Origin: Chrysomallon squamiferum
Lineage: Eukaryota; Animalia; Mollusca
Assembly (NCBI GenBank): GCA_012295275.1
Contig: CM022671.1
Location: forward strand, 33,356,001 to 33,420,000
DNA length: 64,000 nt
Direction of reading: 5' to 3'
The translations under genes were made by a program, and so were the position numbers. Positions 681 through 48,760 of this stretch are shown here, piece after piece. The notes below the pieces were generated by a model. The model was not told the DNA's origin, searched no databases, and saw nothing but the letters and a program-made list of their open reading frames with translations. Position 1 is the stretch's first letter. Every line of letters begins with the position of its first letter.

Positions 681-951
681 ATGGGTCCGACTAAAGAAGA
701 AGATCTGGTAAGAAGGTTGACACCAAAATTTATGGAATTGATTGACCCATCTACATTTATGATTCATCTTGAAGTTCATGTTCTCACTTCCATTGATGAG
801 GTAAGTGACAATTTAGATCCATCAAGTTGTGTCACTAATTAAGTGAGAATTTGTTTGTAATGTTTTTACTGGTAACACACTTTCTGTGGATACTGAAAAC
901 TAATCATCAACAAGTGATTCTTTGTACCAAAAAGAGAAGAACAAAAAAATA

Positions 952-994
<43 letters not shown>

Positions 995-1049
995 GAATCA
1001 AAATTATCAATTTGAGCCAGTAACTGATAATCATTATTCTTTTTATGTA

Positions 1050-1102
<53 letters not shown>

Positions 1103-1292
1103 ATAGATCTGTGGATAGATATATACATTTGTATAAAGCCTTTTTATGAAACATCAACATTTCTTTCTTACATCGTTAATTATATCAGTTACAGTATTGC
1201 ATTATAATTATTCTGTTGTGAAATAGAAGAAAAATTTCTATTTTTTTTTATCATCGTACAATATTTACTGACGTTTAAATAATAATAATATT

Positions 1293-1333
<41 letters not shown>

Positions 1334-3104
1334 CAATATAGTTTAATATAAAGACATTCTACTTGTATTCTGGTTTATTACATTATAATTTTCTGAACAC
1401 ATTCACTCTGATTGGTAAATGTTATTTTCTCTCACTGACCAGTGATGGAGCTGGTTGGCAATGGTGATCATGTTTAGTGACTGTCACAGTCAAAATGTCC
1501 ATTAGTAACATTATCTGCATCTCATTATAACTTCAGACAGTTCAACCCCCCCACACACAAACCCTTTTATAGCATTCATTTTTTGTTTTTCTGGTAGAGT
1601 TTGATAGAGGCTGAAGAAAAGTGTAAAGGAAGACAATATGCAGCGAAAAAATTGTTGGATATTCTTTCTAGAAAAGAAAACTGGTTTGAGAAAATAATAG
1701 AAACTCTGAGAATTGAAGAGGTGAAGTTGAGCCATGTTGCAGATAAATTTCTACAAATTAAAAGTAAGTATTTTTTAAAAATTATTACTGAAACAAAAGG
1801 TTTCATGCTAAAATACCTCACATATATCATTACCAGAGAGACAACTGTAACAAATATTGAATCACATTCATATAGTACTTCCCAGTATATATGTATATAT
1901 ATATTATAAAAGGTAACCGTAACAGATTACTGACAACTGTAATAAATTATATTATTTAACTGGTTTATATAATTTGATTTAAAAAAACCCACAAACCACA
2001 AATTTAGTTGAACACTCAGTGTATGGTTTTATTTACTTATATTCTTTTTCTAGTCTATTTTGTATGATTATAATTATAAAATGATAATTTCTGTTAGCTT
2101 TTGAAGAAACCAATGTTCTCTTTGTTACTTGGAGCTATTAAATGTTCAGATATTGAGAAAGTCATTCATAAGTTTCTGTTTGTTTTCAGAAGAGGTAGAT
2201 GCTGACTGGATTAAATTAGAACAAAAGTCCAGAGGTAAGCAGTTTTCTACACATCATGAGTCTAGATTGTTATCATTATTTAATTGCAGTCTTAAAAGCA
2301 GAAAACTTACTTGAGTTGTAAGTGGTTGTAGGATCAACTCTTCTCATTTCTTCAATTTGTCTTGGTCATAAGACCAAGAGCTTTACTAAAGGCCACTTTT
2401 TTGTGTTTCCCTCTCAGTGTGCAGTGAAAAATAACTCTTGCACTTTCATAAATGATCACTTAAGTTTCCTATTATAACAGATATAGTAAAAACATTTGTT
2501 TTCTTATATTGTTTTTACTTTCAAAAGATGTAATTCTATTAAAGAAAATATCATCTGATCTGAATATGTAGCTTAAACACATGGAGTATTATCAATATAA
2601 CACCTAATAATTATTATATCCAAGTGGTACAAATTACTGCTTCTGTAACATATTAATTTTGTTCTTATTTTTTACTGCAGGAGCTGAGTCACATCAGTCA
2701 GTTCTGTGTGAAAATAAAACAGCTCTGAGCACTTTTATTTTTGGTAATTGTTTGCCAAAACCTAAAGGTAATGTTTTATACAAAATCAGCATAATGTGTT
2801 ACTATGGTTACCATTCTAATTATTCATTATAAATAAAATTAGTACAGAATAAAATGGTTTTTTATTATTTTCTTTGCATTTTATTAGTGTTGTAAAAATT
2901 CATGTTCATTTTTAAAATAGATTATTTTGTTTTATGTCATTCTGTTTAGGTACACTCTTATTTTATTATTATGAAACATGAGTAAACACACACACACACA
3001 CACATACACTCATTTGTTGATATAATGATTTTCTACCTGTAAAACCAAAGATAATTTTCCAGATAAGATGAGTAATAAATATATATTTACATATACAAAA
3101 ACAG

Positions 3105-3161
<57 letters not shown>

Positions 3162-5061
3162 GTTATATGAAAACATTCAGACATTTAGGTATGAAACACA
3201 TATTCATATTGGTATAAAACACATATACCTAATGAAGAAATACACCTACTGATATGAAACAAAGAGAAACACTTACTGGTATAACACACATAGACTTACA
3301 AGCACACATACCTTTACAATACAGACACAGAGATGCTATGATAAATTAGCAATACTTATGTATGTACATACTAACTGACGTGACAATTATATTTTTAGAT
3401 CACTATAAAACAGATGGGAAAAGACATGAACAGAACGAAAATAAAAATCCCACTGTTTGTGATTCTCCCAGGAACGATTTTGGGAATGACAAATTTGTAA
3501 GACCATGTTTTGTTTATTTGGGTGTGCCTGTGTGTGGGTATGTTGTAACTCATATGAAACTTGTTTATTGTTCATCATGGAGTTGTAAGTAGGTTTGAGG
3601 AAGCTGCTTGAAACTCATATAGTCCATCAAACTTCACGCCACCCACTTAAAATGTCTCCAAAAGTAACAGTGTTGGACACAAGTTTGTCGTGTATTGACT
3701 TTAACCCTTCAGAGCATGCATCTGTGTGGTTTGCTGTGTGCAGTGTTACGTATCCACTAATGTGCCTTGTTGTGTGCAGTGTTAAGTATCCACTAATGTG
3801 CCTTGTTGTGTGCAGTGTTTATCCACTAATGTGCCTTGTTGTGTGCAGTGTTAAGTATCCACTAATGTGCCTTGTTGTGTGCAGTGTTAAGTATCCACTA
3901 ATGTGCCTTGTTGTGTGCAGTGTTAAGTATCCACTAATGTGCCTTGTTGTGTGCAGTGTTAAGTATCCACTAATGTGCATTGTTGTGTGCAGTGTTAAGT
4001 ATTCACTAATGTGCCTTGTTGTGTTCAGGGTTAAACTGTCAAAAGTCACTTATTTACTTACTAGTCCCTAGCAATTTGGTAACACAGACTTCACAATTCA
4101 GATTACCTTTTTTGTGATAAAAAGAAGTATACCACTTCCACAACAAAATACTATTTTTTTAATTTACAATACACCCAATCACATAAATGTGAGATTACTA
4201 TACATTTCAATTTTAAAAATATTTTCAATTACCTGAGTTGGTAAATAATTTTCTTTTCTTTTTCTTTCTTTCTTTATTTTTTTGTTGCTTTTTAATTTGT
4301 TATTACAGTTAGGCAATCTTAATTTTGAAAATTGTTTTTCATTTTCTTTCATTGTAGAATGATTTAGAAAGAAAAATTATAAGATTTTTGAGAACTAAGA
4401 CAGAGCCACAACTAACACTGACAATTGCGAAAGCTTGTGGTTGTGAAACACGGAAGGATGTTAATCCATCACTGTATGGCCTTGCCAAAAAAAACATTAT
4501 TAAACAATGTGATACCCGTTCGCCTACCTGGCAGGTGAGTTAATGAGATTTTTAAAACTAAATTTGTTAATTGAAAGAGTTATAAAATGTTAAAAATTAT
4601 AATATTTAATCATTTAGTTTAAGTAAGTCACTTCTTGTTGAATAATATTTATTTCAGTGTTGTTAAAAATAAAAAAAAGTGTTTATTTTTGTTTATTTGA
4701 TGAAAATGATGACTACATAAAGATTAGTCACATAATTACATGAATAAATTTGTGTGGTTGTATGACTAAATTCTGTACTTCTAACTTTCCTCTATCACTT
4801 CATATCAACCTTTAATAATAAAAAAGTATTTTTGTTAACAATTTCTGGAGTATGCATAGAGGCTGAAACTTTTCTTTTGTTTTGTGATAACATTTCATAC
4901 ACAGAAGTGCAAATAATTCAAGTAATGTAAGGTTTTATGTTAATAATTTAAATAATATCTGCAAACAATAAATCTGAAAATAATTTTCTCTTCACAAATT
5001 TCATTTGATGTTATCATTTAACTTTAAAAATATTTTGTTTGGTTTTCAGATGATGTCATAA
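681..5061 (+). CDS. Gene A: CARD + Z-alpha protein (~234 aa, 7 coding exons)
   Basis: Phase-consistent GT-AG exons 681-800, 1598-1763, 2190-2234, 2681-2767, 3399-3496, 4358-4534, 5050-5061 (705 nt, open). CARD: MGPTKEEDLVRRLTPKFMELIDPSTFMIHLEVHVLTSIDE/SLIEAEEKCKGRQYAAKKLLDILSRKENWFEKIIETLRIEEVKLSHVADKFLQIK. Z-alpha: NDLERKIIRFLRTKTEPQLTLTIAKACGCETRKDVNPSLYGLAKKNIIKQCDTRSPTWQ, then MMS*. Confidence 0.85.
3735..4035. repeat. 36-bp minisatellite (~8 copies) in the intron before the gene A Z-alpha exon
   Basis: Unit gtgcagtgttaagtatccactaatgtgccttgttgt repeated in tandem. Confidence 0.95.
4358..4534 (+). CDS. Z-alpha domain exon (type A) of gene A
   Basis: Hydrophobic helix 1 (KIIRFL), helix-3 motif VNPSLY and wing motif SPTW match the Z-alpha signature N-x3-Y...P-x-W (ADAR1 N173/Y177/P193/W195). 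Confidence 0.88.
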
Positions 5062-8298: not shown

Positions 8299-8885
8299 AT
8301 GAATCCAACTAAAGAACAAGATCTGGTACGAAAGATGACACCACAGTTTATGGACTTGATTGATCCATCTTTGTGTATGATTTACTTTGATGTTCATATT
8401 CTCCTTCCCTCTGAAACGGTTAGTAATAATTTAGATAAATCCCGTCTGGTTATTAACTAAGTTAAAATTTGTTTGTAATGTTTTTACTGGTAACACACTT
8501 TCTGTGGATACTGAAAACTAATCATGAACAAATGATTCTTTGTACCAAAAAGAGAAGAACAAAAAAAATATTCTGTGTGTTGACATGTGTGCATGTGTGT
8601 GTGTGTGAATGATGAATCAAAATTATCAATTTGAGCCAGTAACTGATAATCATTATTCTTTTTAAGTAAAAATCATATATATATATATATATATATATGG
8701 ATAGATCTGTGGATAGATATATACATTTGTATAAAGCCTTTTTATGAAACATCAACATTCTTTCTTACATCATTAATTATATCAGTTACAGTATTGCATT
8801 ATAATTATTCTGCTGTGAAATAGAAGAAAAATTACATTTTAACACTTTTATTATTTTATCATTGTACAACATTTACTGAAGTTTA

Positions 8886-8927
<42 letters not shown>

Positions 8928-11900
8928 CAATATAGTTTAAATAAAGACATTCTACTTGTATTCTGGTTTATTAAATTATAATTTTCTGAACACTTTCAGT
9001 CTGATTAGTAAATGTTATTTTCTCTCACTGACCAGTGATAGAGCTGGTTGGCAATGGTGATCATGTTTAGTGACTGTCACAGTCAAAATGTCCATTAGTA
9101 ACATTATCTGCATCTCATTATAACTTCAGACAGTTCAACCCCCCACAAAAAAACCTTTTATAGCATTAATTTTTTGATTTTCTTGTAGTCTTTGATAAAC
9201 GCTAAACAAGAGCAGAAAGGAAGACATCTTGCAGCAAAAGAATTGTTGGATATTCTTTCTAGAAAAGAAAACTGGTTTGAGAAAATTATAGAAACTTTGA
9301 GAATCGAAGATTTGAAGTTGAGCCATGTTGCAGATATATTTCTGCAAATTAAAAGTAAGTATTTTTTTAAAATTATTACTGAAACAAAAGGTTTCATGCT
9401 AAAATACCTCACATATATCATTACCAGAGAGACAACTGTAACAAATATTGAATCACATTCATATAGTACTTTCCATTATTTATTTTTTTATAAAACATAT
9501 TATAAAAGGGGATTGTATATATTGTTTGGTTTAAAAAAAGCACAGACCATAAATTTAGTTGAAAACTCAACTGGAGTTATTAAATATTAAGATGTTGAGT
9601 ACATCATTGATCAATTATCTGTTTATTTTCAAAGGAGATAGATGCTGGCTGGATTAAATTAGAACGAAAGGACAGAGGAAAATCCCCACACAATATAGAC
9701 ACACACAAACACACAGATATGAAAACATGCAGACATACTGGTATGAAACATATATATATAAAACATTTTCACTTCTTTCTTAGAAAATTCCTTTTCATTA
9801 TCCACCTTATGTCTGTGTGTGTGTGTGTGTGTGTTTATAAATCTGTGTAATTTGAAATTCAGGTATTCTAACCTTTCTTATATTTGTTTTTGGTCATCTT
9901 TCCAGGAGAAGTTGATGATCACTGGAACAGTCTGCCGCCAGAAAAGCCTCATTCTGTTTCAGACATAAATCAGACTACAGTTAAAGAATTTAAATTTGGC
10001 AAGATGAAAAGTAAGTTCTATTTGAAAAAACATAAAAAGAACAGAATAATGAATTTAATTTTAATTCAACTCTTAAAACTGACCTAAATTAATCTCTTCA
10101 TAAATAATGGTAGACATACTGGTAGAGTATTTGCCTAATCACCATTGTCAATGATCCTCACTACATCAACTGGATTATTACAGTCAGTATTTATACTAGT
10201 GTATGTGTAGATGTATTATGTACCTAGCTATCTCTATATAAATATAAAACAGTTAGTGAAAACTAATTAATTAATTTAAATTCAGACTGAATTAATTGAT
10301 ATAATGTGTAATCCAAACTACATTGTAATAGTTCTGAGAAATTTCAGTGCCTTTGAGGTTCTTCATGAAAAAAAGTTTGTTAAAGTTTTGTTCTCTCAAA
10401 CTTTTTTCATTTGCATTTTATTTTTTGCTTTTTAAAATATTTCTGGTTCTCCTTCCCACCTTTGATTTCTGTATTTAAAAATGTATATATATATATGTGT
10501 GTGTGTGTGTGTTTTAGAAGATTATGCCACAGATGTTGGTCGTCCAGGAATGCCTGGTGCCAGAAGAGCTGATAACAAGTCAAATAAGGTAAAAATAAAT
10601 GTTTCATTATTATCCCAATCTTTGTGACTGATGTATAAAATCTGAACTGTAAGTAAATATTAAAAATGGATCATACAGTATTCTGTATTTTTACAGTTCT
10701 TCTGTAAAAATATCAGTTTGAAAGTATGTTTTTCCCTGGGCAAGTTTTGATGGTTGGATTTATCAAAGAATTAAGCTTATCACAACATTCACAATCATAA
10801 GTCTTTGGCACTGAATAGCAGCTTTAACTTTCCTTGTATGACCAGCAATCACTAAATAAAAGTTTGTCTCATAATTGTCATATATATTCTCACCATATAT
10901 ACACACATGTAATAAAAGTATATTATTCTACTGAATATGCATTTTCAATTATTTATTGTTTAACATTAGGAAAATTAGTAATTTACAGCTGGATAATGTG
11001 CCTGTCTCTTCTGCAGCTTATGACTTCATTTTTCTCATTTTATTTCCATTTGTAAAAATACTGAGGACATTTAGTACACTGGTATGAAAATATTGAGGAA
11101 AATGAGTTTTAAAAAATGTATTTTTTTCCAAGTCTGAAAATGTCACTATAATTCTATAACTTAACATGGGCAAACACATGTTCATGGGTAGGAATAAATA
11201 TTCCTTACCTGGAGATAATATTCTTTTACAAAAGAAATAATTATATGGACTTAGCTAACAAGGCTGTTATTCTGAGAGTTGACTGCAAATGAATCAAAAT
11301 AAAATTTTAAGATTAAAAAAAAAATATGCTTTATCAGTGCTGTTTCACATTCATCAACTAAATATTTAAAAATATGTACACCTTAACATCTTTTCATTCT
11401 TTGGTTTGTTAATAAGTTATAATTCAAAGACTTACAAAGGGAACAGAAATATAATGGAACAAATTGTAGATAACTAATATTTCATATTTGTAAGTGTTCT
11501 CTTAACAGATATTCAATATAAAACAAATTTACAAATGACTCCAATAGTTTTTCCATGTTCCATTTGCTTAAGACTTGGTTAATCCCGGATTCAGCAACAG
11601 AAATGCTTGGCATTACAAGGACAAAAAACACTACAGCAAAAAATGTATAATTAATAACATTATTAAATTACTTCAAAATTTCAAAACTTCTTAGTGATTT
11701 CTGTTTAATGAACTACTTTGTAGACTCCTGGAATAAAAGAACAGTGCTTTAAGTCTTTCAAACTGAATCAATTATTATATTTTGCAGGCTCAGTCATGTT
11801 CACAGGTTGCAGAAGAACTTGAAGGAGCACGAGCTAATGAGACAGCCAGTAAGTTATCTAGTTAACTAAAAATGTAATTAATATACGTTTTTTTATTCTT

Positions 11901-14900
11901 CTTGATAATGTTCAGTAGCAGTATATATTCCACTTTATCTAACACACTGTGTATACACTTTTTCATTAAGTACTATGTGTTATTTTATGTTTAAAGGAAA
12001 AGAAACAGGACACTTCGTTTGTTAGAGTTCACATATTATGATGGCTAAATGTCAGAGGTCGGTTCATTTATGAAATTCAGAATCTAGAAATGTTTTATTT
12101 CAAAATACAAAACAAAAAAACCCCAGTAAAATACCCAAAATAGTAAACATTTTTGATGGTGAATAAATCGTGAAATCAAAGCCATAAATAAGTGGGTATA
12201 TTTCAATAATTTATATGATGATGGAATAACATTATAAAATACTGAAGCTATTTTTAATATAAGTCTTAGAAATAAATTGTCTTTGTTTATTTTCAAACCG
12301 TTTTGAAGGAAATGGAGCAGAATGAAAAAAGGAACACAGAATAGCTCATACACTGAAGATAAGATTCAGTAAATCTGTAAAATAAATCAAAATAAATTTG
12401 AATATAATAAGATCAGTTTCTTATATCTCTATATAAAATTACATTATTAGAGAAGGTGAAATGTAATTTTCATAATGATATTTTATATACTTTCACATCA
12501 GTCAGGTTGTGTGAAAATAAAACAGAATATCAAAATAATACATTCTAAAAATGAACATGAATTTTTATAACACTAACAAAATGCAAAGAAAATAATAAAA
12601 AAGCATTTTATTTTGTACTAGTTTTATTCATAATGAATAATTAGAATGGTAACCATACTAACACATTATGCTGAATGCATAAACCATTATCTTTAGGTTT
12701 TGGCAAATGATTACCAGAAATAAAAGTGTTCTGACCTGTTTCATTTTCACACACACACACACACACACACATACACACACAAAGATATACATATATGAAA
12801 ACTGACGACATTTAGGTATGAAACACACATATACAGATTGGTACAAAAAACATATATGTAATGTAAGAACACACATACATACTGGTATGAAACACAGAGA
12901 AACACTTACTGGTATAACACACATAGACTTACAAGAACACATACCTTTACAATACATACACAGAGATGCTATGATAAATTAGCAATACTTATTAGCAGTA
13001 CTTACAATCTGATGTGACATTTATATTTTTTTGATCTGTATAAAACAGACAGTGGGAAAAACACTAAAAGGGTAACTCATGAAGAGAATGAAAATAATAA
13101 GCCCACTTCTCATGTTTGTGGATCTTCGTACAACCATTGTGAGCAGCAGAAATTAGTAAGACCATGTTTTGATTATTTTGGTATACGTGATAACTGTGTG
13201 TGTGTGTGTGTCTGTGTGTGTATTTGTGTGTGAGTGTGCATGTGTTATAACTCATATGAATCTTGTTTATATTATAATATATTATCTACATTATTTTCAT
13301 TGTATTACTATATACATTTATTTTGTTATTACAGTGAAGCATATAAAGGTACCCATATACAGACACACATATACATATATCTATAAACATTTTGTAAGAT
13401 ATTCAACTCGCAGAAATGATTATATAACAAAATTAATATCTTATTAGAATAAAAGGCTGATTCCAGAGTTTGCATTTATTAGTTAACTGTTCTATTAAAA
13501 ATAATGTTATTGAAATAGTTAAGCACTGAAAACATTTGATCAGTTTTGTGAAATCTGCACACTGTGATGAAATAGATGTTCTGCATTGATTATGTGGTAA
13601 TTAGATGGTCAGGCATTTTTATTTTATTTGAAAGATGAAATTAATGTTTATAAAAAAAACCTGGTTTCTTTTGTTAGGTTGCTGTCTTTTTCATCAAAAT
13701 AATAATCCATTTCATACTTTAAACCTAAAAAAGGTTTAATTTGGGAATTTTTTAAACCAGACTGAAGTCATTTGTCTTTTTCAAGTCATTATATCATGCA
13801 ACTAGAAGTGTTAATGTGTGGTGTGTCACTGAAACAAACTTATGCATGCTACAACATGCCCTTTATAATTGTGTTATGACAAATAAATGGTCTAATAAAA
13901 TTCTTTATTTTTTCGAAGATGTTGGTGCCTAAGAACTTAACTTAAAGATCTTGTAAGAGAAGAATCATTTAATGTTCTCTAAAGTTTCCTAAACATGTCA
14001 GACACAAAAGTGTTTTACTTTGACTTTGCCCCTTTAGAGAAATACATTCTTCTGACTGAAAAAAACCCATCCTTTGTACAGAAGTAAGCATCCACCTTGT
14101 TCCTTGTGTGTGTGGAGCTAAGTGTGCACCTTGTGTGTGTGGAGCTAAGTGTGCACCTTGTGTGTGTGGAGCTAAGTGTGCACCTTGTGTGTGTGGAGCT
14201 AAGTGTGCACCTTGTGTGTGTGGAGCTAAGTGTGCACCTTGTGTGTGCAAAATTAAATACCCACCAGTGTCTCTTGTGTGCAGAGTTAAACTGTCAAGTG
14301 TCACTTATTTACTTACTAGTCCACACCAATTTGGTAACACAGACTTCACAATTCAGATTACCTTTTTTGTCATAAACATAAATATACCATTTTGCCAACA
14401 AAATATATTTTTTACTGTAAACAAGATATCAACAAGATGTAACTATACATTACAATTTTAAACCTTTCATTTATATGAACTGGTAAAAATATATATGTAT
14501 GTATTTCTTAAAATTATTTATTATTATTGTTTTTTTTTTTTTTTAAATTTGTTATTACACTTAGGCAAAGGGCTACTTTGAATCTTAGTTTTGAAAATTG
14601 TTATTGTTTTCTTTGTAGAATGATTTAGAAGAAAAAATAATAGCATTTTTGAAAACTAAGACAGAGCCACAACTAACACTGACAATTGCGAAAGCTTGTG
14701 GTTGTGAAACACGGAAGTATGTTAATCCATCACTGTACGGCCTTGCCGAAAAAAACATTATTAAACAATGTAATACCCGTTCGCCTACCTGGCAGGTGAG
14801 TTAATGAGATTTTTAAAACTAAATTTGTCAATTGAAAGAGTTATAAAATGTTAAAAATTATAATATTTAATCATTTAGTTTGAGTAAGTAGATCAGTCAT

Positions 14901-15226
14901 TTCTTTTTAAATGATTTCTTCCAGTGTTGTTAAATATGAATCACTTCTGTACTTCTAACATTCCTTTACAACTTCAGATCAACCTTTAATAATAATAAAG
15001 CATGGTGATAACAATTTCTAGAGTATGCAGACAGACTGAAATTTTCCTTTTGTTTTGTGGCATTTCATATATAGAAACGGAAATAATCCAAGGAAAGTAA
15101 GGTTAATGTGAAATAATATATCTTTATAAAATCTGTATAAAATATATCTGAAAACCTCTTTCTTTTTGCAAATTGCATTTGATGTAGTCTTTTAACTTTA
15201 AAAACTTTTGTTTTCAGATGATGTGA
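8299..15226 (+). CDS. Gene B: CARD + Z-alpha protein (~271 aa, mosaic linker)
   Basis: Exons 8299-8418, 9189-9354, 9906-10010, 10518-10588, 11788-11848, 13049-13155, 14619-14795, 15218-15226 give an open 816-nt CDS. The CARD is paralogous to gene A. Z-alpha: NDLEEKIIAFLKTKTEPQLTLTIAKACGCETRKYVNPSLYGLAEKNIIKQCNTRSPTWQ. Linker exon choice is less certain: the 13049 acceptor is a downstream AG because the ancestral one is mutated. Confidence 0.72.
9633..9677 (+). pseudogene. Dead copy of gene A exon 3 inside gene B
   Basis: gag ata gat gct ggc tgg att aaa tta gaa cga aag gac aga g is homologous to 2190-2234, but the acceptor (cag>caa) and donor (gt>ga) are mutated. Confidence 0.65.
14095..14290. 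repeat. 27-bp minisatellite in the intron before the gene B Z-alpha exon (also 26045-26270 and 43040-43330)
   Basis: Unit ttgtgtgtgtggagctaagtgtgcacc in tandem. It is related in sequence to the 36-bp family. Confidence 0.95.
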
Positions 15227-17963: not shown

Positions 17964-17994
<31 letters not shown>

Positions 17995-35395: not shown

Positions 35396-35469
<74 letters not shown>

Positions 35470-38400
35470 GCAGCAACAAATTTGTAATATTTTTTTTTTT
35501 CTCTAGAAATTAAAAAGATCATAGCTTGGTGTTTGTTAAAAAAGTGATTGGCCATCACCTGCAGTAAAATTAGGAGGATTGATCCTGGAGCATGTCATTG
35601 CTACCCTGTGATTAACTAAGTCATGGAAACGTTTTAATAAATTAATTTGACTGTTTCACACAAACTGACTACAAAATTTACAAGAAAGTTGTTCATATGT
35701 GATGCATTGTTGAATTTATAAAGGATTTGTAGATATGTGTGGCCTTATTGTCCTTATCTGTTCATTGTTAGAAAATTCCTTTTTGTTATCCAGCTTATGA
35801 AGTGTGTGTGTGTGTGTGTGTTTGTTTATAAATCTCTATAATTTGAAATTCATTTATTCTGAATTTTATTTATTTTTAATGTTTGTTGTCATTTTTTGTA
35901 GGACAAGTGGATAATTACTGGAACAGTCTGCCGCCAGAAAATCCTCATTTTGTTTCAGACATAAATCAGACTACAGTTAACGAATTTAAATTTGGCAAGC
36001 CAAAAAGTATGTTCTATTTACAAAGAAAACGAAGAAAATAATAATTAATTTAATTTTAATTGAATTCCTGAAACTGAGCTATGATATCCTGGGTGTGACA
36101 GATATGGATAAGATAAATGAATGGCTTAAATTAATCTCTTTATAATATCCAATACATATTGATACAGTATTTGCCTGATCAGCATTGTCAGTACTCCTTA
36201 CCACATCTCCTGGATTATTACAGTCAGTATTTATACCAGTATAGGTATGTGTGTATTATTTACATATGTATGTTTATATTTATTAGAAAACAATTGATGA
36301 AAACTAATTGATTAATTTAAATTCAGACTGAATTAATTGATATGGTATGTAATACAAGCCTTTCAGGTTCTTCATGAAAAATAAAAATAAAAAGTTAAAG
36401 TTTTGTTCTCTTTCTCATACGTTTTTCATTCTCCCTCCCACATTTGTATTATGTCTGTATTTAAAAATGTGTGTATGTGTTTTAGGTGATTATGTCACAG
36501 ATGTAGGTCATTCAGGAAGGCCATATTTAAGAAAAATTGAAACTGCACAAAAAGGGGAAGCTTCCATGTATGTTGATGCCAAAAGTGCTGATAACAAGCC
36601 AGATAAGGTAAAAATAAATGTTTCATTATTATCCCAATCTTTGTGATTGATGCATAAAATCTGAACTGTAAGTAAATATTAAAAATGGAAACATACAGTA
36701 TTCAGCATTTTCTGATTTCTTGTGCAAATTGATTTAGAGAAGTGGGTTGTTTGTTTTATAACATGCTAACACCATTACAGGACACCTGGCAAAGCAACAC
36801 ACTAAGGACATTTCACACAGAACCAGTTAAAAAACCTATTAACAGCAATCCACAGCATACATGGAGAGCATGCGACTTATGGTGCCTATTACCTTAAAAC
36901 AGAATCAGAATATTTTCTCTTTATTATGAATAGTATGTCTATAAGTGTGTGCATGAAAATTATCTCTTCCTGCTAAAAAGTAAGAATGGTGTGCAGAACT
37001 GAGGTGTCAGATTTTTTCTTTCCCTTGTTACATAAAATCATTTCACATAGAATTAATATTATGATGCTGTCCATTATTCATGATATTATTATAAAAATAT
37101 TCAAAAGCACATTTAAAGAAAGTGAATTCAATCCTTTTGTTTACTTTTCAGAGTGAATTAAAAGATAAAATACTAGAATTTTTAAAAACTAATCCAGGAC
37201 CACAGGAAACAATAAAAATTGCAAAAGCCTGTGGTTATAAATCACGTTCAGATGTGAATCCCGTAATTTATAGCCTAGAGAAAGAGGGTCTTCTCCAGAA
37301 ATGTACTGACCAACCTCCCTCCTGGCAGTACATCAATATGAGTATTGTAGACAGGGTAGAAAGATAAGAAATAAAATAAAATTACACATCCACTTTTTTT
37401 CTTTTTTTTTTTTGTGTGGGGTGAATGGGCAGAGAAATAAGCATCAAATTAAAAAGTTGTTTAATCTTTCTGATCTTTGTTTAAACTGGTAAATGATCAA
37501 GAAATAGAAACCAATTTCTATACTGTTAACGTCAAATGTAATAGATAATAAGAAATTTTAAAAAGCATTACATGAATCACCATTGTTTTTTAGTAATCAC
37601 AAATGTAGCAGGAGGCATCTAAGAAGATCTCAGTTTCCAAAATATCATACTTGCAATACTGCTGTGAAAAAAATAATAATAACATTTGTTAAGAATTATA
37701 ATATTTTTAAAATTTGACAAAAACTTTTGTTTTCTAATATTTTCAGACAAATGAATGTACAGAACACAAGGAAGATGATGGTTATGCAACATTAAATTAT
37801 AGGTTAATTTTAACTTCACGAATATCCAGTGTGAGATTGAAATTGTTCTGTTTTAAGTTATTTGCATAAATCAGTAATATTTCTATAAAGATGAAATGCA
37901 TGCATCAGTTGGAATTCCATACTTGATCTTGAATTGAGCTATATTTCTAGGTGTTTAAATTAATATATTAAAAATCTTAGCATTTATTATAAAAAACAAA
38001 ATAATAATAATAATTTGTAATTATTTAACTCTGAAAATATACTGAACTGCCTGTTATTTATTTTTATTATTATTATTATTATTATTAGTTTCATACTCTA
38101 CGTGAAAGGGTTTACTTTTGGAAACTGTTAGAAGTTATCATGACAACAGTTATTTTATTTATTTAATTATTTATATTTTAAACTAAATCAACACATGGAG
38201 AAATTCTTTATCAATATAAAATCCTGCTTGGTATTATTTTCCAGTATTCAAAAGTCCACTGACGAAAGTGATGTTTATGATCAGCTTGAGAATATTCATT
38301 TTGATGACAATCCGGAATACCATGACAGACAGCGTGACACTGCAGTAAGTTATAATAAAACAACTACTTCGAAAATCACACACACCAACATTTCTAGTAC

Positions 38401-39705
38401 TGAATTAATAGTGAGATGAGTAGTGGGTTGTAGTAGAGTAAGTTACATTAGTACATGTCACACTACAGCACGGCAGTGTACATCACTACACTGCATCATA
38501 TCATGTGTCAGTGTACATCATTACATCATGTCAGTATGTCATATATCATGTTAGTTTACATCACTGCATCATTTCAGTATGTCATATATCATGTTAGTTT
38601 ACATCACTGCATCATTTCAGTATGTCATGTATCATGTCAGTGTACATCACTATATATAGTTTATATTATTGCATCATGTCATTAGAGATCAAATTACAGT
38701 AAATGCTCAATTTAATGGATTGATATTTTATTATAACATGAAATATTTAATGTACTCTCCAGTTTTAATATTAAATATTGAGTAACAGCAATTCCTTTGC
38801 TCTAATTAAGTCTGCTCGGGAATAAAAATGTATCTGAATTGTAATATATGGATGGAGATGTACCATTTGTTTTCTGGTAGCAGGTTGAAGAAGTCAAAGT
38901 CACTTTTTGTAAAAAAATAATTATACTAACCCCTCTTAAAAAACCCTAAAAATAATAATAAAAGATATAAATCTCTAAATGATGGCAGTCTCAGAAGTTG
39001 TTCTTCAGATGATGTAAAAGTTTCTGGTTCATCCATCTGCACAAATCATTGAGTATGAGACTTCCTTTGCACCTAAAACAGTCTGCTAAATCCAAATATT
39101 CATTAAATCAGATACACTGTATGTCACGTTGTTATGTGAAGTTATGTCTGGTTCTCTCTCACTGTTAGTACTCACATTGCAGAAACATGAAGAGAAGGAA
39201 TATACCAAAGCAGAAGTAACACAAGCCCTTCAACATCTGGCAGTACATCACTGTGAATATTGTAGACATGGTAGAAATTGTCTCATAATTATCATATATA
39301 TTCTCACTATATACACATAAATGTAATAAAAGTATATTATTCTACTGAATATGCTTTCTCATTTATTTATTCTTTAACATTACAGCTGGATAATGTGCCT
39401 CTCTCTTCTGCAGCTTATGACTTCATTTTTCTCATTTTATTTCCATTTGTAAAAATACTGAGGACAGTTAGTACACTGGTATGAAAATATTGAGGAAAAT
39501 TAGTTTTAAAAGACTTACAAAGGGAACAGAAATATAGATATAACAGATATTCAACATGAAATATTTTTAACCAGTGGTTACATAACTCCACACATGTGGA
39601 TATATACTACACAGAAAAGCCAAGGAAGCTTGCTGCTGTCACATAAGGAGCCATTTTCTAATCTCAACAAGAGATCCTTTTTAATCAGCCTCCGCAAGGC
39701 AGTGT

Positions 39706-39737
<32 letters not shown>

Positions 39738-41223
39738 GTAAAATACCACAAACATTGTCTGCATAACTTGTGGCACCCAGACATTTTTTCACTGGTAACC
39801 TCTTTCAGTGACAGTCTACTGAAATTAGGAACACTATAACAGTAAGAGGGAAATAGTTTCATAAAAAACATATATAATAATAAACCTTTAAATGGAAAGG
39901 TGTAGCTGATGAAAGAAGAGTGTTGAGCTGGAAATTGGTGGGTTTTACAAATGACTCCAATGGTTTTTCCATGTTCCATTTGCTTAAAACTTGGTTAATC
40001 CCAGACTCAGCAACAGACATGCTTGGCATTAGAAGGGAAAATGTTTTCACTACAGCAAAAAATTTGTAATTAATAACATTATTAAATTACTTCATGCATT
40101 TGACAAGAAGACGAAGAAATTGCTGCAAAATTCCAAAACTTAAATCAACTTCTTAGTGATTTTTTTACTCACTGACATGTTTAATGAACTACTTTGTAGA
40201 CTCCTGGAAAAAAGAACAGTGCTTTAAGTCTTTTAAACTGAATTAATTATTATATTTTGCAGGCTCAGTCATGTTCACAGGTTGTAGAAGAACTTGAAGG
40301 AGCACGAGCTAATGAGACAGCCAGTAAGTTATATTGTTAACTAAAAATGTAATTAATATACGTTTTTTATTCTTCTTGAAATGTTCAGTAACCGTATAAT
40401 TCTACTTTCTCTAGCACTCTGTATTGGCACTTAATGATAAACTGGAATGTGTTCTGTTATGCTTAAAGAACAAGAAACAGGAAAATTTGTTTCTTTCATG
40501 ACTGAATATCAGATAAAAATTCATGTATAATATTCAGAATCTATAAATGTTTTATTACAGAAATCAAGCTATTTTTAATTTAAATCTTAGAAACAAATTG
40601 TGTTTATTTTCAGTTTTAAAGGAAGTGGAGCAGAATGAAAAAAAGAAGACAGAAACCTCATACACTGAAGGTAAGTGTCAGATTAAAACTGTAAAATAAA
40701 CCAAAATAAATTTCAGTATAATAAGATCAGTTTCTTATACCTTTATATAAAATGACATTATTAGAAAAGGCGAAATATAATTTTCATGATGATTTTTTAT
40801 ACACTTTCAATAAGTCATGTCTGTTTGAAAATAAAACAGCTCAGTAAACTTTTATTTTTGGTAATCATTTGCCAAAACCTAAAGGTAATGTTTTATACAC
40901 AATCAGCAAGATGTGATACTATGATTACCATTCTAATTATTCATTATAAATAAAATTAGTACAAAATAAAATGTTTTTTTATTATTTTCTTTGCATTTTA
41001 TTAGTGTTATAAAAATTCATGTTCATTTTTAAAATAGATTATTTTGTTTTATGTCATTCTGTTTAGGTACACTCTTATTTTATTATTATGAAACATGAGT
41101 AAACACACACACACACACAGATATACACTCATTTGTTGATATAATGATTTTCTACCTGTAAAACCAAAGATAATTTTCCAGATAAGATGAGTAATAAATA
41201 TATATTTACATATACATAAACAG

Positions 41224-41262
<39 letters not shown>

Positions 41263-41976
41263 GTTATATGAAAACATTCAGACATTTAGGTATGAAACAC
41301 ATATACCTAATGAAGAATTAGTACAAAATAAAATGTTTTTTAAAAATTATTTTCTTTGCATTTTATTAGTGTTATAAAAATTCATGTTCATTTCTAAAAT
41401 AGATTATTTTACTGTATGTGACATTTCTTCATTCTGTTTAGGTACACTGTTATTTTAGTATTATCAAAACATGAATAAACACAGACACACACATTTGTAG
41501 CTATAATGAATTTCTTCTGATAAAACCAAAGATAATTTTCCAAATAGATGAGTAATACATATATATTTACATATACAAAAAGAGAAAGAAACCGTAGAGA
41601 TTTAGGTATGAAATACACATGTACATATTGGTATAAAAACCATATGTCTAATGCAAGAACACACATACACATACTGGTATGAAACACAGAGAAACACTTA
41701 CTGGTATAACACACATAGACTTACAAGCACACATACCTTTACAATACAGACACAGAGATGCTATGATAAATTAGCAATACTTATTAGCAGTACTTACAAT
41801 CTGATGTGACATTTATATTTTTTTGATCTGTATAAAACAGACAGTGGGAAAAACACTAAAAGGGTAACTCATGAAGAGAATAAGCCCACTTCTCATGTTT
41901 GTGGATCTTCAAACAACCATTGTGAGCAGCAGAAATTAGTAAGACCATGTTTTTATTATTTTGGTGTAAATGATAA

Positions 41977-42015
<39 letters not shown>

Positions 42016-45000
42016 AACTCATATGAATCTTGTTTATATTATAATATATTATCTACATTATTTTCATTATATTACTATATACATTTATTTTGTTATTACA
42101 ATGAAGCATATAAAGGTACACATATACAGAAACACATATACATATATATATATAAACATTTTGTAAGATATTCAACTTGCAGAAATGATGATTATATAAC
42201 AAATTTAATATCTTATTAGAATAAAAGGCTGATTCCAGAGTTTGCATTTATTAGTTAACTGTTCTATTAAAAATAATGTTATTGAAATAGTTATTAGCAA
42301 ATTATGTACAAATTTAAAGATGGGATTTACCTAAATGGTCTTATTCTAGGCCAAAATTATGAAACATTATGTTGAATGATGAATAATATTTGTCTTTATA
42401 ACAAAAATAAGAAATCGAAATATTTATAGAGTATTTACAAGAAAGCACTGAAAACATTTGATCAGTTTTGTGAAATCTGCACACTGTGATGAAATAGATG
42501 CTTTGCATTGATTCTGTGGTAATTACATGGTCAGGCATTTTTATTTTATTTGAAAGATGAAATTAATGTTTATAAAAAAAATAAATAAAAAAAAATGGTT
42601 TCTTTTGTTAGGTTGCTGTCTTTTTCATCAAAATAATTATCCATTTCATACTTTAAACCTAAAAAAGGTTTAATTTGGGAATTTTTTAAACCAGACTGAA
42701 GTCATTTGTCTTTTTCAAGTCATTGTATCGTGCAACTAGAAGTGTTAATGTGTGGTGTGTCACTGAAACAAACTTATGCATCCTACAACATGCCCTTTAA
42801 AGGTGTATAATTGTGTTATGACAAATAAATGGTCTAATAAAATTCTTTATTTTTTTTCGAAGATGTTGGTGCCTAAGAACTTAACTTAAAAATCTTGTAA
42901 GAGAAGAATCATTTAATGTTCTCTAAAGTTTCCTAAACATGTCAGACCCAAAAGTGTTTTACTTTGACTTTGCCCCTGTAGAGAAATACATTCTTCTGAC
43001 TGAAAAAAAACAACACCATCCTTTGTACAGAAGTATGTATCCACCTTGTTCCTTGTGTGTATGGAGCTAAGTGTGAACCTTGTGTGTGTGGAGCTAAGTG
43101 TGCACCTTGTGTGTGTGGAGCTAAGTGTGAACCTTGTGTGTGTGGAGCTAGGTGTGAATCTTGTGTGTGTGGAGCTAAGTGTGCACCTTGTGTGGAACCT
43201 TGTGTGTATGGAACTAAGTGTGAACCTTGTGTGTGTGGAACTAAGTGTGCACCTTGTGTGTGTGGATTAAGTGTGAACCCACCAGTGGAGCTAGGTGTGA
43301 ATCTTGTGTGTGTTGTGTGCACCTTGTGTGTTAAAAACCTGTTAAACTGTCAAGTGTCACTTATTTACTTACTAGTCCACACCAATTTGGTAACACAGAC
43401 TTCACAATTCAGATTACCTTTTTTGTCATAAACATAAATATACCATTTTGCCAACAAAATATATTTTGATGATGATATACCATTTGTTTTCTGGTAGCAG
43501 GTTGAAGCAGTCAAAGTCACTTTTTGTAAAAAAAACACAATTATACTACCCACCCCAAGAAAACCACTAATAATAATAAAAGATATAAATCTCTAAATGA
43601 TGGCAGTCTCACAAGTTGTTCTTCAGTTGATGTATAAGTTTCTGGTTCATCCATCTGCACAAATCATTGAGTATGAGACTTCGTTTTCATCTTGGAGTTT
43701 GTAAGCAGCTTCGGAAAAAATGAGATTTGAAGATTTCAGGAGGCTGTTTGAAATGTATACTTACCATCAAATGACATACACCCACTTATAATGTCTTTGA
43801 AAGAAACAATGTTGGACACAAGTGTGCCATATATTGACTTTAACCCTTTAGAAAATATATTATTCTGACTGAAAGCATCAGAGCATGCTTCTGTGTGCTT
43901 TGCTGTGTGCTGGGGTTAAGCATCCACCTGTGTCCCTTTTGTGCAGAATTAAGTATCCACTAATGTGCTTTGTTGTGTGCTGAGTTAAGTGTCTGCTTGT
44001 GTGCCATGTGTGCAGAGTTAAGTATCTGCTTGTGTTCCTTGTTGTGTGCAGAGTTAAGTGTCTACTTGTGTGCCTTGTTGTGTGCTTAGTTAAGTATCTG
44101 CTTGTGTTCCTTGTTGTGTGCTTAGTTAAGTGTCTACTTGTGTGCCTTGTTGTGTGCTTAGTTAAGTATCTACTTGTGTTCCTTGTTGTGTGCAGAGTTA
44201 AGTGTCTACTTGTGTGCCTTGTGTGCAGAGTTAAGTATCTACTTGTGTGCCTTGTTGTGTGCAGAGTTAAGTATCTACTTGTGTGCCTTGTTGTGTGCAG
44301 AGTTAAGTATCTACTTGTGTGCCTTGTTGTGTGCAGAGTTGTATCTTGTTGTGTGTTTAGTTAAGTGTATCTACTTGTGTGCCTTGTTGTGTGCTTAGTT
44401 AAGTATCTACTTGTGTGCCTTGTGTGCAGAGTTAAGTATCTACTTGTGTGCCTTGTTGTGTGCAGAGTTAAGTATCTACTTGTGTGCCTTGTTGTGTGCT
44501 TAGTTAAGTGTATACTTGTGTGCCTTGTTGTGTGCTTAGTTAAGTATCTACTTGTGTGCCTTGTGTGCAGAGTTAAGTATCTACTTGTGTGCCTTGTGTG
44601 CAGAGTTAAGTGTCTACTTGTGTGCCTTGTGTGCAGAGTTAAGTGTCTACTTGTGTGCCTTGTGTGCAGAGTTAAGTGTCTACTTGTGTGCCTTGTTGTG
44701 TGCAGAGTTAAGTGTCTACTTGTGTACCTTGTGTGCAGAGTTAAGTGTCTACTTGTGTGCCTTGTTGTGTGCAGAGTTAAGTGTCTACTTGTGTGCCTTG
44801 TGTGCAGAGTTAAGTGTCTGTCTGTTGTGTGCAGAGTTGTCTACTTGTGTGCCTTGTTGTGTGCAGAGTTAAGTGTCTACTTGTGTGCCTTGTTGTGTGC
44901 AGAGTTAAGTATCTACTTGTGTGCCTTGTTGTGTGCAGAGTTAAGTGTCTACTTGTGTGCCTTGTTGTGTGCAGAGTTAAGTATCTACTTGTGTGCCTTG

Positions 45001-48000
45001 TTGTGTGCAGAGTTAAGTGTCTACTTGTGTGCCTTGTTGTGTGCAGAGTTAAGTATCTACTTGTGTGCCTTGTTGTGTGCAGAGTTAAGTATCTACTTGT
45101 GTGCCTTGTTGTTGCAGAGTTGTGTCTACTTGTGTGCCTTGTTGTGTGCAGAGTTAAGTGTCTACTTGTGTGCCTTGTTGTGTGCAGAGTTAAGTATCTA
45201 CTTGTGTGCCTTGTTGTGTGCAGAGTTAAGTGTCTACTTGTGTGCCTTGTTGTGTGCAGAGTTAAGTGTCTACTTGTGTGCCTTGTTGTGTGCAGAGTTA
45301 AGTATCTACTTGTGTGCCTTGTTGTGTGCAGAGTTAAGTGTCTACTTGTGTGCCTTGTTGTGTGCAGAGTTAAGTGTCTACTTGTGTGTGCCTGTGAGTT
45401 GCCTTGTGTGCAGAGTGCAAATGTCTACTTGTGTGCCTTGTTGTGTGCAGAGTTAAGTATCTACTTGTGTGCCTTGTTGTGTGCAGAGTTAAGTATCTAC
45501 TTGTGTGCCTTGTTGTGTGCAGAGTTAAGTGTCTACTTGTGTGCCTTGTTGTGTGCAGAGTTAAGTATCTACTTGTGTGCCTTGTTGTGTGCAGAGTTAA
45601 GTGTCTACTTGTGTGCCTTGTTGTGTGCAGAGTTAAGTGTCTACTTGTGTGCCTTGTGTGCAGAGTTAAGTATCTACTTGTGTGCCTTGTTGTGTGCAGA
45701 GTTAAGTGTCTACTTGTGTACCTTGTTGTGTGCAGAGTTAAGTATCTACTTGTGTGCCTTGTTGTGTGCAGAGTTAAGTATCTATCTTGTTGTGTGCAGT
45801 GTCATCTACTTGTGTGCCTTGTTGTGTGCAGAGTTAAGTGTCTACTTGTGTGCCTTGTTGTGTGCAGAGTTAAGTATCTACTTGTGTGCCTTGTTGTGTG
45901 CAGAGTTAAGTGTCTACTTGTGTACCTTGTTGTGTGCAGAGTTAAGTATCTACTTGTGTGCCTTGTTGTGTGCAGAGTTAAGTGTCTACTTGTGTGCCTT
46001 GTGTGCAGAGTTAAGTGTCTACTTGTGTGCCTTGTTTGTGTGCAGAGTTAAATGTCTACTTGTGTACCTTGTTGTGTGCAGAGTTAAGTATCTACTTGTG
46101 TGCCTTGTTTGTGTGCAGAGTTAAGTATCTACTTGTGTGCCTTGTTGTGTGCAGAGTTAAGTGTCTACTTGTGTGCCTTGTTGTGTGCAGAGTTAAGTAT
46201 CTACTTGTGTGCCTTGTTGTGTGCAGAGTTAAGTGTATACTTGTGTGCCTTGTTGTGTGCAGAGTTAAGTGTCTACTTGTGTGCCTTGTGTGCAGAGTTA
46301 AATGTCTACTTGTGTACCTTCTTGTGTGCAGAGTTAAGTATCTACTTGTGTGCCTTGTTGTGTGCAGAGTTAAGTATCTACTTGTGTGCCTTGTTGTGTG
46401 CAGAGTTAAGTGTCTACTTGTGTGCCTTGTTGTGTGCAGAGTTAAGTATCTACTTGTGTGCCTTGTTGTGTGCAGAGTTAAGTATCTACTTGTGTGCCTT
46501 CTTGTGTGCAGAGTTAAGTATCTACTTGTGTGCCTTGTTGTGTGCAGAGTTAAGTGTCTACTTGTGTACCTTGTTGTGTGCAGAGTTAAGTATCTTCTTG
46601 TGTGCCTTGTTGTGTGCAGAGTTAAGTGTCTACTTGTGTACCTTGTTGTGTGCAGAGTTAAGTATCTACTTGTGTGCCTTGTGTGCAGAGTTAAGTGTCT
46701 ACTTGTGTACCTTGTTGTGTGCAGTTGAGTATCTACTTGTGTGCCTTGTTGTGTGCAGAGTTAAGTATCTACTTGTGCGCCTTGTTGTGTGCAGTCGAAG
46801 TCACTTTTTGTAAAAAAAACAATTATACTAACTCCCTAAAAAAATACCTAAAAATAATAATAAAAAATATAAATCTCTAAGTGATGGCAGTCTCACAAGT
46901 TGTTCTTCAGTTGATGTATAAGTCTCTGATTCCTCCATCTTCACAAATCATTGAATATGAGACTTCCTTTGCACCTAAAACAGTCTGCTAAATCCAAATA
47001 TTCATTAAATCAGATACACTGTATGTCACGTTGTTATGTGAAGTTATGTGTGGTTCTCTCTCACTGTTAGTACTCACATTGCAGATACATGAAGAGAAGG
47101 AATACACCAAAGCAGAAGTAACACAAGCTCTTCAACATATGTCAAATTGGAGGACAGTTTTGACAGAAGAAGAGGTGAAATAAAATTATAAATAAATTCA
47201 CAAGAGAATTTAATTGGCTTGACATGCTCAGAAATACATCAGCACTCAAACAAATTTCAGATACCTGATATTGTTTTTTTAATGTCATAAAACCAGTTAA
47301 AAAAAGTAGTATTCAGAATTGTCAGAATAAGTTAATAAATCTTTTAAAAAAATGATAAAAAAATAAATTTGTCACACCAATTTTTGTTTTGTGTCTTAAG
47401 CATTATTTCATATTTCCTAATCATCATACATGCAATAAAAAAAACCAAAAAAAAAAAAAACAAAAAAACCCCAAAAAACCATTAAACGTTAAAAACGTCC
47501 AATGAAAACCAAATAGAAAATATCCTTGCAAATTCAGTTATTATTTAAATATATATAATTTTTTAACAATTAATTATTTATTTATTTATTCCAAAGGTTA
47601 AGGATTACATGAAAGACTTTATAGATTCAGATGGCACTTACATTATATGGTTTTGGGAAAGAAAAAGAAGACCTGTGATTTCTGTTCTGTGAGTATTTGT
47701 AGAAACTGATTGTGACTTTGTGACCGGGGCATTTATTTACTGAAATATTTAGATATCAAATAATTTCTTCTTCTATTAAATCTGTCCTTAATTAACACTG
47801 CTTTTTTGTGAGTATTTGCACAGATATAATGACTACTCCTTTACTGCATCATTATGAGTTCTAACAGCAACAAATACTAGTGAACTAATTCTATATATGT
47901 GATCTCTACCACTATTACTTTGATAAAACAACTGTTGCTAGTAAAATTATTTTTACACTGGCATTTCCTGGCTTATGAAATTGGGCTCTATTCTTAGATC

Positions 48001-48760
48001 TGTCTGTATGTTTTTTTCTCGTGTCTGCTAGTTAAATATTTGTCTTAGTATATATTTTACTTAAAACATTTTAAACATAATACAATAATAATAATAATGT
48101 CTGTATCACCTAAAACACATACACACATTTTTAAATACAGACATCATACAAAGGCGGGAGGGAGAATGAAAAAAAAAAGGAAAAAGAGAACAAAACTTTA
48201 ACTTTTTATTTTTATTTTTCACTAAGAACCTGAAAGGCACTAAAATTTCTCAGGACTATTAAAACGTAGTTTGTATTATATATTATATCAATTAATTCAG
48301 CCTAAATTTAAATTAATCGAATAATTTACAATAATTGTTTTGTGATGAACATGTACATACACATACATGTGTGTGTGTGTGTGTGTGTGTGGAAAATATG
48401 CATTGCAAAGTAGTCTTGCCATTTCATTATAACCAAGTTATGTAACTTGCATTCTTAATACAGTAGTCTTTAGAGTGAACAATGCATAACTATATATGTT
48501 TGTTACTACTATTATTTCAGATACTCTGAAGAAATAATTACATTTCTGTTTTGTATTGTTTTTGTTTGTATTTTAGACACCATGGTGAAATTGTAAATTT
48601 TATTGTACACAAGAGGAAGAAGCAGAATGAAACTAACTATTTCATTGAAACAGATCAGGAAATTTGTTCAACACTTGATGATGTTGTCAGCTTCCATATT
48701 AAACATGGAATCAGAGACACACGTAACGAATCATATGGACAAGTCATACGACTACTATAG
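34435..48760 (+). CDS. Gene E: CARD + Z-alpha + ITAM-like region + divergent SH2 domain (~486 aa, or ~414 aa if 38344 splices directly to 47085)
   Basis: Exons 34435-34560, 35058-35223, 35902-36006, 36486-36607, 37152-37355, 37747-37802, 38245-38344, 40263-40323, 40614-40670, 41841-41938, 47085-47174, 47597-47688, 48577-48760 are phase-consistent and open. No second Z-alpha exon follows 43467. Confidence 0.72.
43900..46795. repeat. ~2.9-kb 36-bp minisatellite array (33-bp variants) in the intron before the SH2 exons
   Basis: Unit gtgcagagttaagt(a/g)tctacttgtgtgccttgttgt, roughly 80 copies by length, same family as 3735-4035. It is flanked by a duplicated ~180-bp block (about 43505-43685 and 46790-46970). 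Confidence 0.97.
47085..48760 (+). CDS. SH2 domain exons (three) of gene E
   Basis: Spliced: ...QHMSNWRTVLTEEE/VKDYMKDFIDSDGTYIIWFWERKRRPVISVL/HHGEIVNFIVHKRKKQNETNYFIETDQEICSTLDDVVSFHIKHGIRDTRNESYGQVIRLL*. This follows the SH2 pattern W..helixA..GTFLVR..LSV..V.H..I..Y.I..F.SL..LV.YY. Confidence 0.75.

Follow-up and report, generated by a model that had tools for sequence, protein, structure and literature searches.

A stretch of 64,000 nucleotides of the Chrysomallon squamiferum genome (GCA_012295275.1, contig CM022671.1, positions 33,356,001 to 33,420,000 of the forward strand; hereafter the window) holds a tandem family of at least four spliced genes in one cluster, each of which joins an N-terminal CARD to one or two Z-alpha domains. 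From sequence, we read the family as a lineage-specific sensor of Z-form nucleic acid that would cluster CARDs, with a probability of about 0.5. By analogy, its logic would most likely be like that of ZBP1 and its output like that of RIG-I-like receptors (RLRs).

Domains and gene models of the cluster

Translated searches of the window, whose animal DNA is AT-rich and interrupted by a single gap of 200 N, found 5 CARD exon pairs and 6 Z-alpha exons, all on the + strand (Table 1). Gene models A, B, C and E were put together from splice sites. All four were without an internal stop, and their junctions were GT-AG throughout, with the donor after Z-alpha type 2 (AT) as the sole exception. The earlier note on this DNA had counted four to five spliced paralogues, of which four stand as open models, while the fifth, copy D, is broken and probably redundant. 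A candidate exon 3 of 37-45 nt in B, C and E was dropped, as its donor is lost in B and RNA shows exon 2 spliced straight to exon 4 in a contig.

Table 1. Coordinates of the family genes and other features, numbered from the first letter of the window.
Feature	Position	Strand	Description
CARD exon pairs, starts	681/1598, 8299/9189, 17366/18027, 29340/29984, 34435/35058	+	
Z-alpha type 1 exons, starts	4358, 14619, 26600	+	
Z-alpha type 2 exons, starts	20145, 32084, 37152	+	
Gene A	681..5061	+	CARD, short linker, Z-alpha type 1; 205 amino acids (aa); open model
Gene A exons	681-800, 1598-1763, 2190-2234, 3399-3496, 4358-4534, 5050-5061	+	
Gene B	8299..15226	+	CARD, linker, Z-alpha type 1; 271 aa; open model
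Gene B exons	8299-8418, 9189-9354, 9906-10010, 10518-10588, 11788-11848, 13049-13155, 14619-14795, 15218-15226	+	
Gene C	17366..27207	+	CARD, linker, Z-alpha type 2, acidic Tyr region, Z-alpha type 1; 420 aa
Gene C exons past CARD	20145-20330; 20740-20795, 21253-21352	+	Z-alpha-2 (donor AT); Tyr motifs
Gene C later exons	23272-23332, 23623-23679, 24850-24947; 26600-26776	+	last one Z-alpha-1
Copy D	29340..32982	+	partial CARD-Z-alpha-2 gene, ends at assembly gap
Assembly gap	32983-33182		200 N, between copy D and gene E
Gene E	34435..48760	+	CARD, linker, cassette Z-alpha type 2, Tyr motifs, SH2-like; 480 aa with, 418 aa without Z-alpha
Gene E 5' exons	34435-34560, 35058-35223; 35902-36006, 36486-36607; 37152-37337	+	first two CARD, last one Z-alpha-2
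Gene E mid exons	37747-37802, 38245-38344; 40263-40323, 40614-40670, 41841-41938	+	first two Tyr motifs
Gene E SH2-like domain	47085-47174, 47597-47688, 48577-48760	+	three exons
Neighbouring gene	58721-63853, runs on to right		Apaf-1-type CARD exon (Pfam CARD 39.9 bits) and 1202-codon SAMD9-like exon (PDB SAMD9 E 3e-13)

Copy D carries 1-nt deletions in three exons, and its Z-alpha exon at 32084 is frameshifted. The 4.9 kb left of the gap are 96.4% identical to the 4.9 kb right of it (33183-38050), with substitutions between copy D and gene E of 1.66% and 0.35%. Since D is broken and ends at the gap, and the end of its contig overlaps the start of the contig of E, four genes are likelier than five, and copy D is probably a second haplotype of gene E. 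Given that five replacement sites differ between them in CARD exon 2, it may instead be a separate fifth gene. Near-identical blocks (0.12-0.7% substitutions) are also found within the cluster.

Pfam z-alpha (PF02295) scored 24.6-36.4 bits, above the cut-off of 21, in all five intact Z-alpha exons scanned, which bears out the assignment of these winged-helix exons to Z-alpha; for gene A the scores were 29.6 bits for z-alpha and 34 bits for CARD_2. A profile of 4 window Z-alpha exons and 14 relatives gave 25 PDB matches, two of them entries titled uncharacterised and the others Z-alpha constructs of ADAR1, PKZ, ZBP1 and viruses. The structure model of type 2, the type that was modelled, reached a predicted local distance difference test score (pLDDT) of 96.9, and its best match was the PKZ Z-alpha bound to Z-DNA (Z 11.2, root-mean-square deviation 1.2, 59 residues). 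The equivalents of N173, Y177, P193 and W195, listed in the accessible part of PMC11298590, are retained by each of the five intact exons, as had been noted before, and the proteins are likely to bind Z-RNA or Z-DNA.

Residue R174 is replaced by Pro in all window Z-alpha domains, as it is in the ADAR1 domains of Aplysia, Biomphalaria and Physella. The closest pairwise matches were gastropod ADAR1-like N-termini and unnamed ADAR fragments, and an N-P-x-[LI]-Y signature is common to the window domains and mollusc ADAR1 Z-alpha. A tree of 240 rows and 59 columns placed both types next to ADAR-derived rows and away from those that bear a RHIM, but its support was only 81-85; because this support is weak, an origin from ADAR1 is suggested rather than established. 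Both Z-alpha exon types are phase 0-0 and thus suit exon shuffling.

Each family gene has one CARD, split over two exons, with intron positions that we take to be like those of human MAVS. Pfam CARD_2 scored 31.4 and 34.0 bits (cut-off 28.2) in the 2 of 2 second exons scanned. The CARD gave 15 PDB matches, the best 12 of which were RIG-I or MDA5 (top E 6e-8), with RIG-I CARD1 and MDA5 CARD2 as the best solved CARDs and MAVS not among the 15. Thus, of the likeness to RIG-I, MDA5 and MAVS proposed earlier, the first two names stood and the third did not. In the models of 205-480 aa we found no double-stranded RNA-binding domain (dsRBD), deaminase, helicase or RLR C-terminal domain, and the RHIM core [IVA]Q[IVLF]G was found in none of them, in agreement with the earlier description of the family as free of RHIM, deaminase and helicase.

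RNA splicing and the layout of gene E

All contigs of three RNA runs from one study (X1, X2 and X3) and of X5, whose kind is unrecorded, were compared with positions 34400-39300; five runs contain the gene E region. The evidence consists of contig joints and loose ends, and contigs give no expression levels. CARD exon 2 is joined to exon 4 in X3 (1 of 3 RNA runs), exon 4 to exon 5 in X2 and X3 (2 of 3), and exon 5 through Z-alpha-2 to exon 7 in X1 (1 of 3). Downstream, exon 7 is joined to exon 8, and exon 8 to the exon at 40263, in 3 of 3 RNA runs. The linker exon at 41.9 kb leads into the first SH2-like exon (47085) in X1, exon 8 leads directly into it in X2, and sequence unique to 47142 onward was present in all three. 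None of the gene E joints was listed for X5. Additionally, an X3 loose end corresponds to a junction between the end of gene B CARD exon 2 and a linker exon, and the C-type exon-1 start and exon-5 end are present in RNA contigs.

At position 37338, the X5 contig has a G that creates a GT donor for Z-alpha-2, an unspliced X2 contig keeps the A, and splicing at this position is seen in an X1 RNA contig. The G in X5 together with the A in the unspliced X2 contig indicates that live and dead Z-alpha-2 donors both exist. A dead donor should give either exon skipping or a read-through CARD-Z-alpha form of 244 aa, for which the stop in gene C lies at 20360.

The family had earlier been described as CARD-Z-alpha alone, which does not hold for gene E: it goes on through acidic Tyr motifs into an SH2-like domain that the earlier note had missed. 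The motifs EDDGYATL, ESDVYDQL and NPEY lie 3' of Z-alpha-2 in C and E, and genes A and B, which are without Tyr motifs or SH2-like exons, end in Z-alpha. The middle SH2-like exon (47597-47688) is open. Against SH2 clusters in the ESM Atlas the last one scored 0.92, and 10 of its 10 best family matches were SH2; its model from a single sequence (pLDDT 54.7) was too poor for a fold search. Searched singly, the SH2-like exons had no SH2 match in Pfam (PF00017) or PDB, and by eye YIIW occupies what we take to be the FLVR place, with Trp where the consensus presumably has the phosphotyrosine-binding Arg; for these reasons the domain is named SH2-like only. The first SH2-like exon recurs as half copies at 22192-22251 in C and 39184-39242 in E, which show that both genes were rearranged from an SH2-bearing ancestor, and these truncated copies mark the rearrangement breakpoint.

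Divergence, other species and known systems

Pairwise substitution counts on the one assembly gave, for the CARD between subfamilies, a silent divergence (dS) of 1.1-2.0 and a ratio of replacement to silent divergence (dN/dS) of 0.29-0.45, and for Z-alpha type 1 against type 2 a dS of about 0.8 and a dN/dS of 0.45-0.49. Each subfamily pairs the CARD with its own Z-alpha type, and at such values (dS 0.8-2.0, dN/dS 0.29-0.49) the pairing looks old and constrained. Between C and E, 27 of 97 CARD residues differ (30.5 replacement and 2.5 silent changes; dN/dS 3.5), a replacement excess with a one-sided Fisher p of 0.013-0.046. Their CARD exons differ by 11% and the flanking introns by 5.2% and 2.1%, whereas the Z-alpha-2 protein is identical. 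This contrast may reflect recent conversion, because the whole 3' part is near-identical. Between A and B, silent and replacement divergence both exceed that of the intron (dN/dS 0.85).

An exhaustive search returned 241 Z-alpha relatives, of which the best 150 were used. Pfam, run at thresholds of 1e-4 and 1e-6 on 123 of the best 150 of 241, detected no CARD in these 123, and none of the best 150 of 241 matched a profile built from the four window CARDs (best E 0.38). CARD was likewise absent from 12 of 12 matches of a profile search. Word-indexed homolog searches with single exons confirmed 0 of 16 candidates for Z-alpha-2 and 0 of 86 for CARD exon 2, which is weak evidence, and of the pattern matches in metagenome scans, 0 of 105 were confirmed in one and 0 of 412 in another. 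On these sequence searches the CARD-Z-alpha pairing looks lineage-restricted, and other relatives outside the best 150, or poorly annotated genomes, could hide more.

Z-alpha was found with other partners. The frog record XP_068120700.1 (Hyperolius riggenbachi) carries DEDs and Z-alpha domains, two of each, and a stretch resembling a RHIM, being either a ZBP1-like/DED fusion or a fused gene model, and the tubeworm record KAI0216220.1 (Lamellibrachia satsuma) joins Z-alpha to a kinase and Ribonuc_2-5A (RNase L/IRE1-like). Two Z-alpha domains occur with trypsin-PDZ in the unnamed record P0072; in the unnamed record P0045 they stand with what by eye is a nucleotidyltransferase-like motif, and in a krill record (P0048) they follow an unassigned helical domain. 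Partners such as DEDs, kinase-ribonuclease and trypsin-PDZ indicate that Z-alpha is a mobile module.

No description of a CARD-Z-alpha protein was found in the literature searched, which covered few subscription journals and to which supplementary Z-alpha lists could add one; the earlier statement that no characterised family is known thus agrees with what we found. The architecture was not found in the accessible portions of two text supplements of PMC11298590, the term CARD does not occur in the part of the main text of PMC11293857 that was available, and a review, as far as its text was available, names no eukaryotic Z-alpha proteins other than ADAR1, ZBP1 and PKZ (PMC10523160). The architecture therefore appears to be undescribed so far, as one more fusion of a known sensing domain, seen up to now in one genome.

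The family is not ZBP1, RLR, MAVS or ADAR1, because a defining feature of each class is missing. It resembles ZBP1/DAI as a non-enzymatic protein in which Z-alpha is joined to a homotypic signalling module, but this module is a CARD instead of a RHIM and lies N-terminal to Z-alpha, and its Z-alpha did not group with RHIM-bearing rows in the weakly supported tree. It shares with RIG-I and MDA5 a CARD_2-type CARD placed N-terminal to the nucleic-acid-binding part, but has a single CARD and Z-alpha, with no helicase or C-terminal domain. Unlike mollusc ADAR1, the family models have no dsRBD or deaminase exon. SLP-76 and BLNK have an N-terminal interaction domain, acidic Tyr motifs and a C-terminal SH2 domain, presumably the same layout as gene E, which differs in having a CARD for SAM, a cassette Z-alpha and an SH2-like domain without the Arg.

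Invertebrate comparisons were drawn from partly accessible sources. Lophotrochozoan RLRs with grafted N-terminal domains have been reported (PMC8998645). CARDIB of Nematostella also has a single RLR/MAVS-like CARD outside a helicase (bioRxiv 10.1101/2025.11.22.689925), but is nearly CARD-only, whereas the window family adds Z-alpha, Tyr motifs and an SH2-like domain. A reported annelid caspase with a Z-binding domain, known from annotation only, likewise combines such a domain with death-signalling machinery in a lophotrochozoan (PMC11463336); it has a caspase instead of a CARD and is a single gene, not a tandem family.

Proposed function and genomic surroundings

Under the sensor reading, the family would have been assembled by exon shuffling in one mollusc lineage, with the N-terminus of ADAR1 as the source of the Z-alpha exon and an RLR-type gene as that of the CARD. 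Z-alpha would bind Z-form duplexes that accumulate during infection or whenever ADAR1 cannot keep pace; single CARDs would be pulled into an oligomer by the presence of several molecules on the same duplex, or by the two Z-alpha domains in gene C, and this oligomer would recruit a CARD partner. The likeliest adaptor would be the CARD-Tyr-motif-SH2-like product of gene E, relaying to tyrosine-kinase or death pathways, and skipping of Z-alpha-2 would turn the protein from sensor into adaptor. The architecture, the RLR-type CARD and the Z-binding residues support the dedicated Z-RNA/Z-DNA sensors proposed earlier, and the immune neighbour, an adjoining CARD-SAMD9-like gene, fits as well; gene E falls outside that description, having contigs of a Z-alpha-less CARD-Tyr-motif-SH2-like route in 3 of 3 RNA runs.

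Several results weigh against a sensor. Vertebrate RLRs signal via tandem CARDs, and each gene here has one. The Z-alpha-2 donor is AT, a dead donor, in all three window copies (20331, 32269 and 37338-37339), and exon 5 is joined to exon 7 without Z-alpha-2 in X1, X2 and X3 (3 of 3 RNA runs). That CARD and Z-alpha share a transcript, as the earlier note had assumed, is supported by the chain of RNA junctions from the CARD exon to Z-alpha-2, but no single RNA contig on 34400-39300 reaches from one to the other, and the chain mixes runs and C- and E-type alleles, the X1 junction having C-type exon 5 and the X3 contig E-type exon 2. Generic winged helices tie with PKZ Z-alpha in the fold match of the type 2 model, the ESM Atlas gave only bacterial or unplaced helix-turn-helix clusters once ADAR clusters were excluded, and P192 is Ser in the three type-1 exons and Pro in the two type-2 exons. 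The searches described above found no CARD-Z-alpha relative in another species. The models differ from MAVS in that no C-terminal membrane anchor (the top 19-residue hydropathy, 1.3, lies in the CARD) and no TRAF6 or pLxIS motif, by patterns that we take to be standard, was found. Finally, binding is held as the sole criterion, and two Z-alpha domains from viruses fail to flip A-RNA, in the accessible part of PMC11298590.

The output proposed earlier, a MAVS/IRF route, is doubtful for the single CARD and for these missing anchor and motifs, and also because, in the available parts of the reports, neither five abalone genomes (PMC11103948) nor Aplysia (PMC9334734) yielded a MAVS; the RLRs of Aplysia are without CARDs, and separate RIG-I/MAVS-type CARD genes exist there. 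The CARD partner is probably not MAVS. A more specific version of the sensor reading, which we regard as rather unlikely in all its parts, is that sensors A, B and C on Z-RNA would recruit the gene E product CARD to CARD, with the splice-site polymorphism setting sensor versus adaptor, as a self-contained Z-RNA alarm of MAVS-less gastropods. If true, this would make it the first signalling pathway in invertebrates that is dedicated to Z-nucleic acid, and convergent with ZBP1. Were the CARD-Z-alpha family a kept one, Z-form signalling would have arisen again outside vertebrates, with a third output domain. The family would offer small soluble proteins with which to probe whether invertebrates sense Z-RNA, and candidates for the question raised for abalone and Aplysia of an RNA-sensing signal without MAVS.

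The family could instead restrain signalling as a decoy or regulator, its single CARD capping or sequestering RLR CARDs or baiting viral CARD antagonists while Z-alpha masks Z-RNA; we consider this unlikely, though worth keeping in view. Genes A, B and C have one CARD each and no downstream motif that was recognised, which would fit such a role, as would an SH2-like domain that lacks what is presumably the usual Arg, and the fast CARD change between C and E fits a bait. The single-CARD cnidarian CARDIB is described, in the accessible part of the preprint, as repressing basal immunity by binding RLRb, but also as required for activation (bioRxiv 10.1101/2025.11.22.689925). A nucleic-acid-binding domain under constraint beside the CARD argues against a decoy, and so do known Z-alpha fusions, which tie sensing to an effector according to the available text of PMC11293857.

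The skipping of Z-alpha-2 in 3 of 3 RNA runs, with exon 7-8 and SH2-like exon sequence in the same 3 of 3, would also suit a CARD-Tyr-motif-SH2-like adaptor of SLP-76/BLNK-like layout as the core of the family, serving RLRs without MAVS and carrying Z-alpha exons as optional passengers. The descent of C and E from an SH2-bearing gene (half copies at 22192 and 39184) and the reported absence of MAVS in abalone and Aplysia, as far as those sources were available (PMC11103948, PMC9334734), point the same way. However, A and B have no such exons or motifs and end in Z-alpha, N/Y/P/W are kept in both Z-alpha types after a dS near 0.8, and a GT donor and a spliced-in Z-alpha-2 form exist, so that we judge this quite improbable. 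Least probable, in our view very much so, is that the genes are decaying by-products, transcribed but without kept function, of an unstable immune cluster in which duplication has been recent and exons have been shuffled, some copies being assembly duplicates. Decay would be expected to leave features such as the dead donor, the broken copy D, exons that are truncated, blocks that are near-identical (0.12-0.7% substitutions), the overlap across the gap and the lack of an orthologue in searches of other species. It would not be expected to leave four models that are open across 6-13 exons, splicing that is precise in RNA, or a dN/dS that is below 0.5 between subfamilies but above 1 within one of them.

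Two linker exons of B, C and E are homologous to 58972-59032 and 59444-59501 of the neighbouring SAMD9-like gene (79-86% identity). Between gene E and this gene, several direct repeats of 75-83% and 260-620 bases lie at 52027-57198. A 36-bp satellite of 83 copies (43892-46794) occupies the gene E intron ahead of the SH2-like exons, and a related 8.5-copy array (3731-4034) lies in the gene A intron ahead of Z-alpha-1. In the last intron of E, 48105-48364 is an inverted 89% copy of intron-4 sequence at 19225-19483. ISRE-, kB- and GAS-like promoter motifs upstream, by patterns that we take as given, were set aside, and no inference was drawn from them, because homologous DNA is common to B-E and 0.03-0.6 such matches per 900 bases are expected by chance. 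A CpG-rich patch at window positions 150-450, upstream of gene A, with GGG(W)5CC and GAS-like sites, is a possible promoter.

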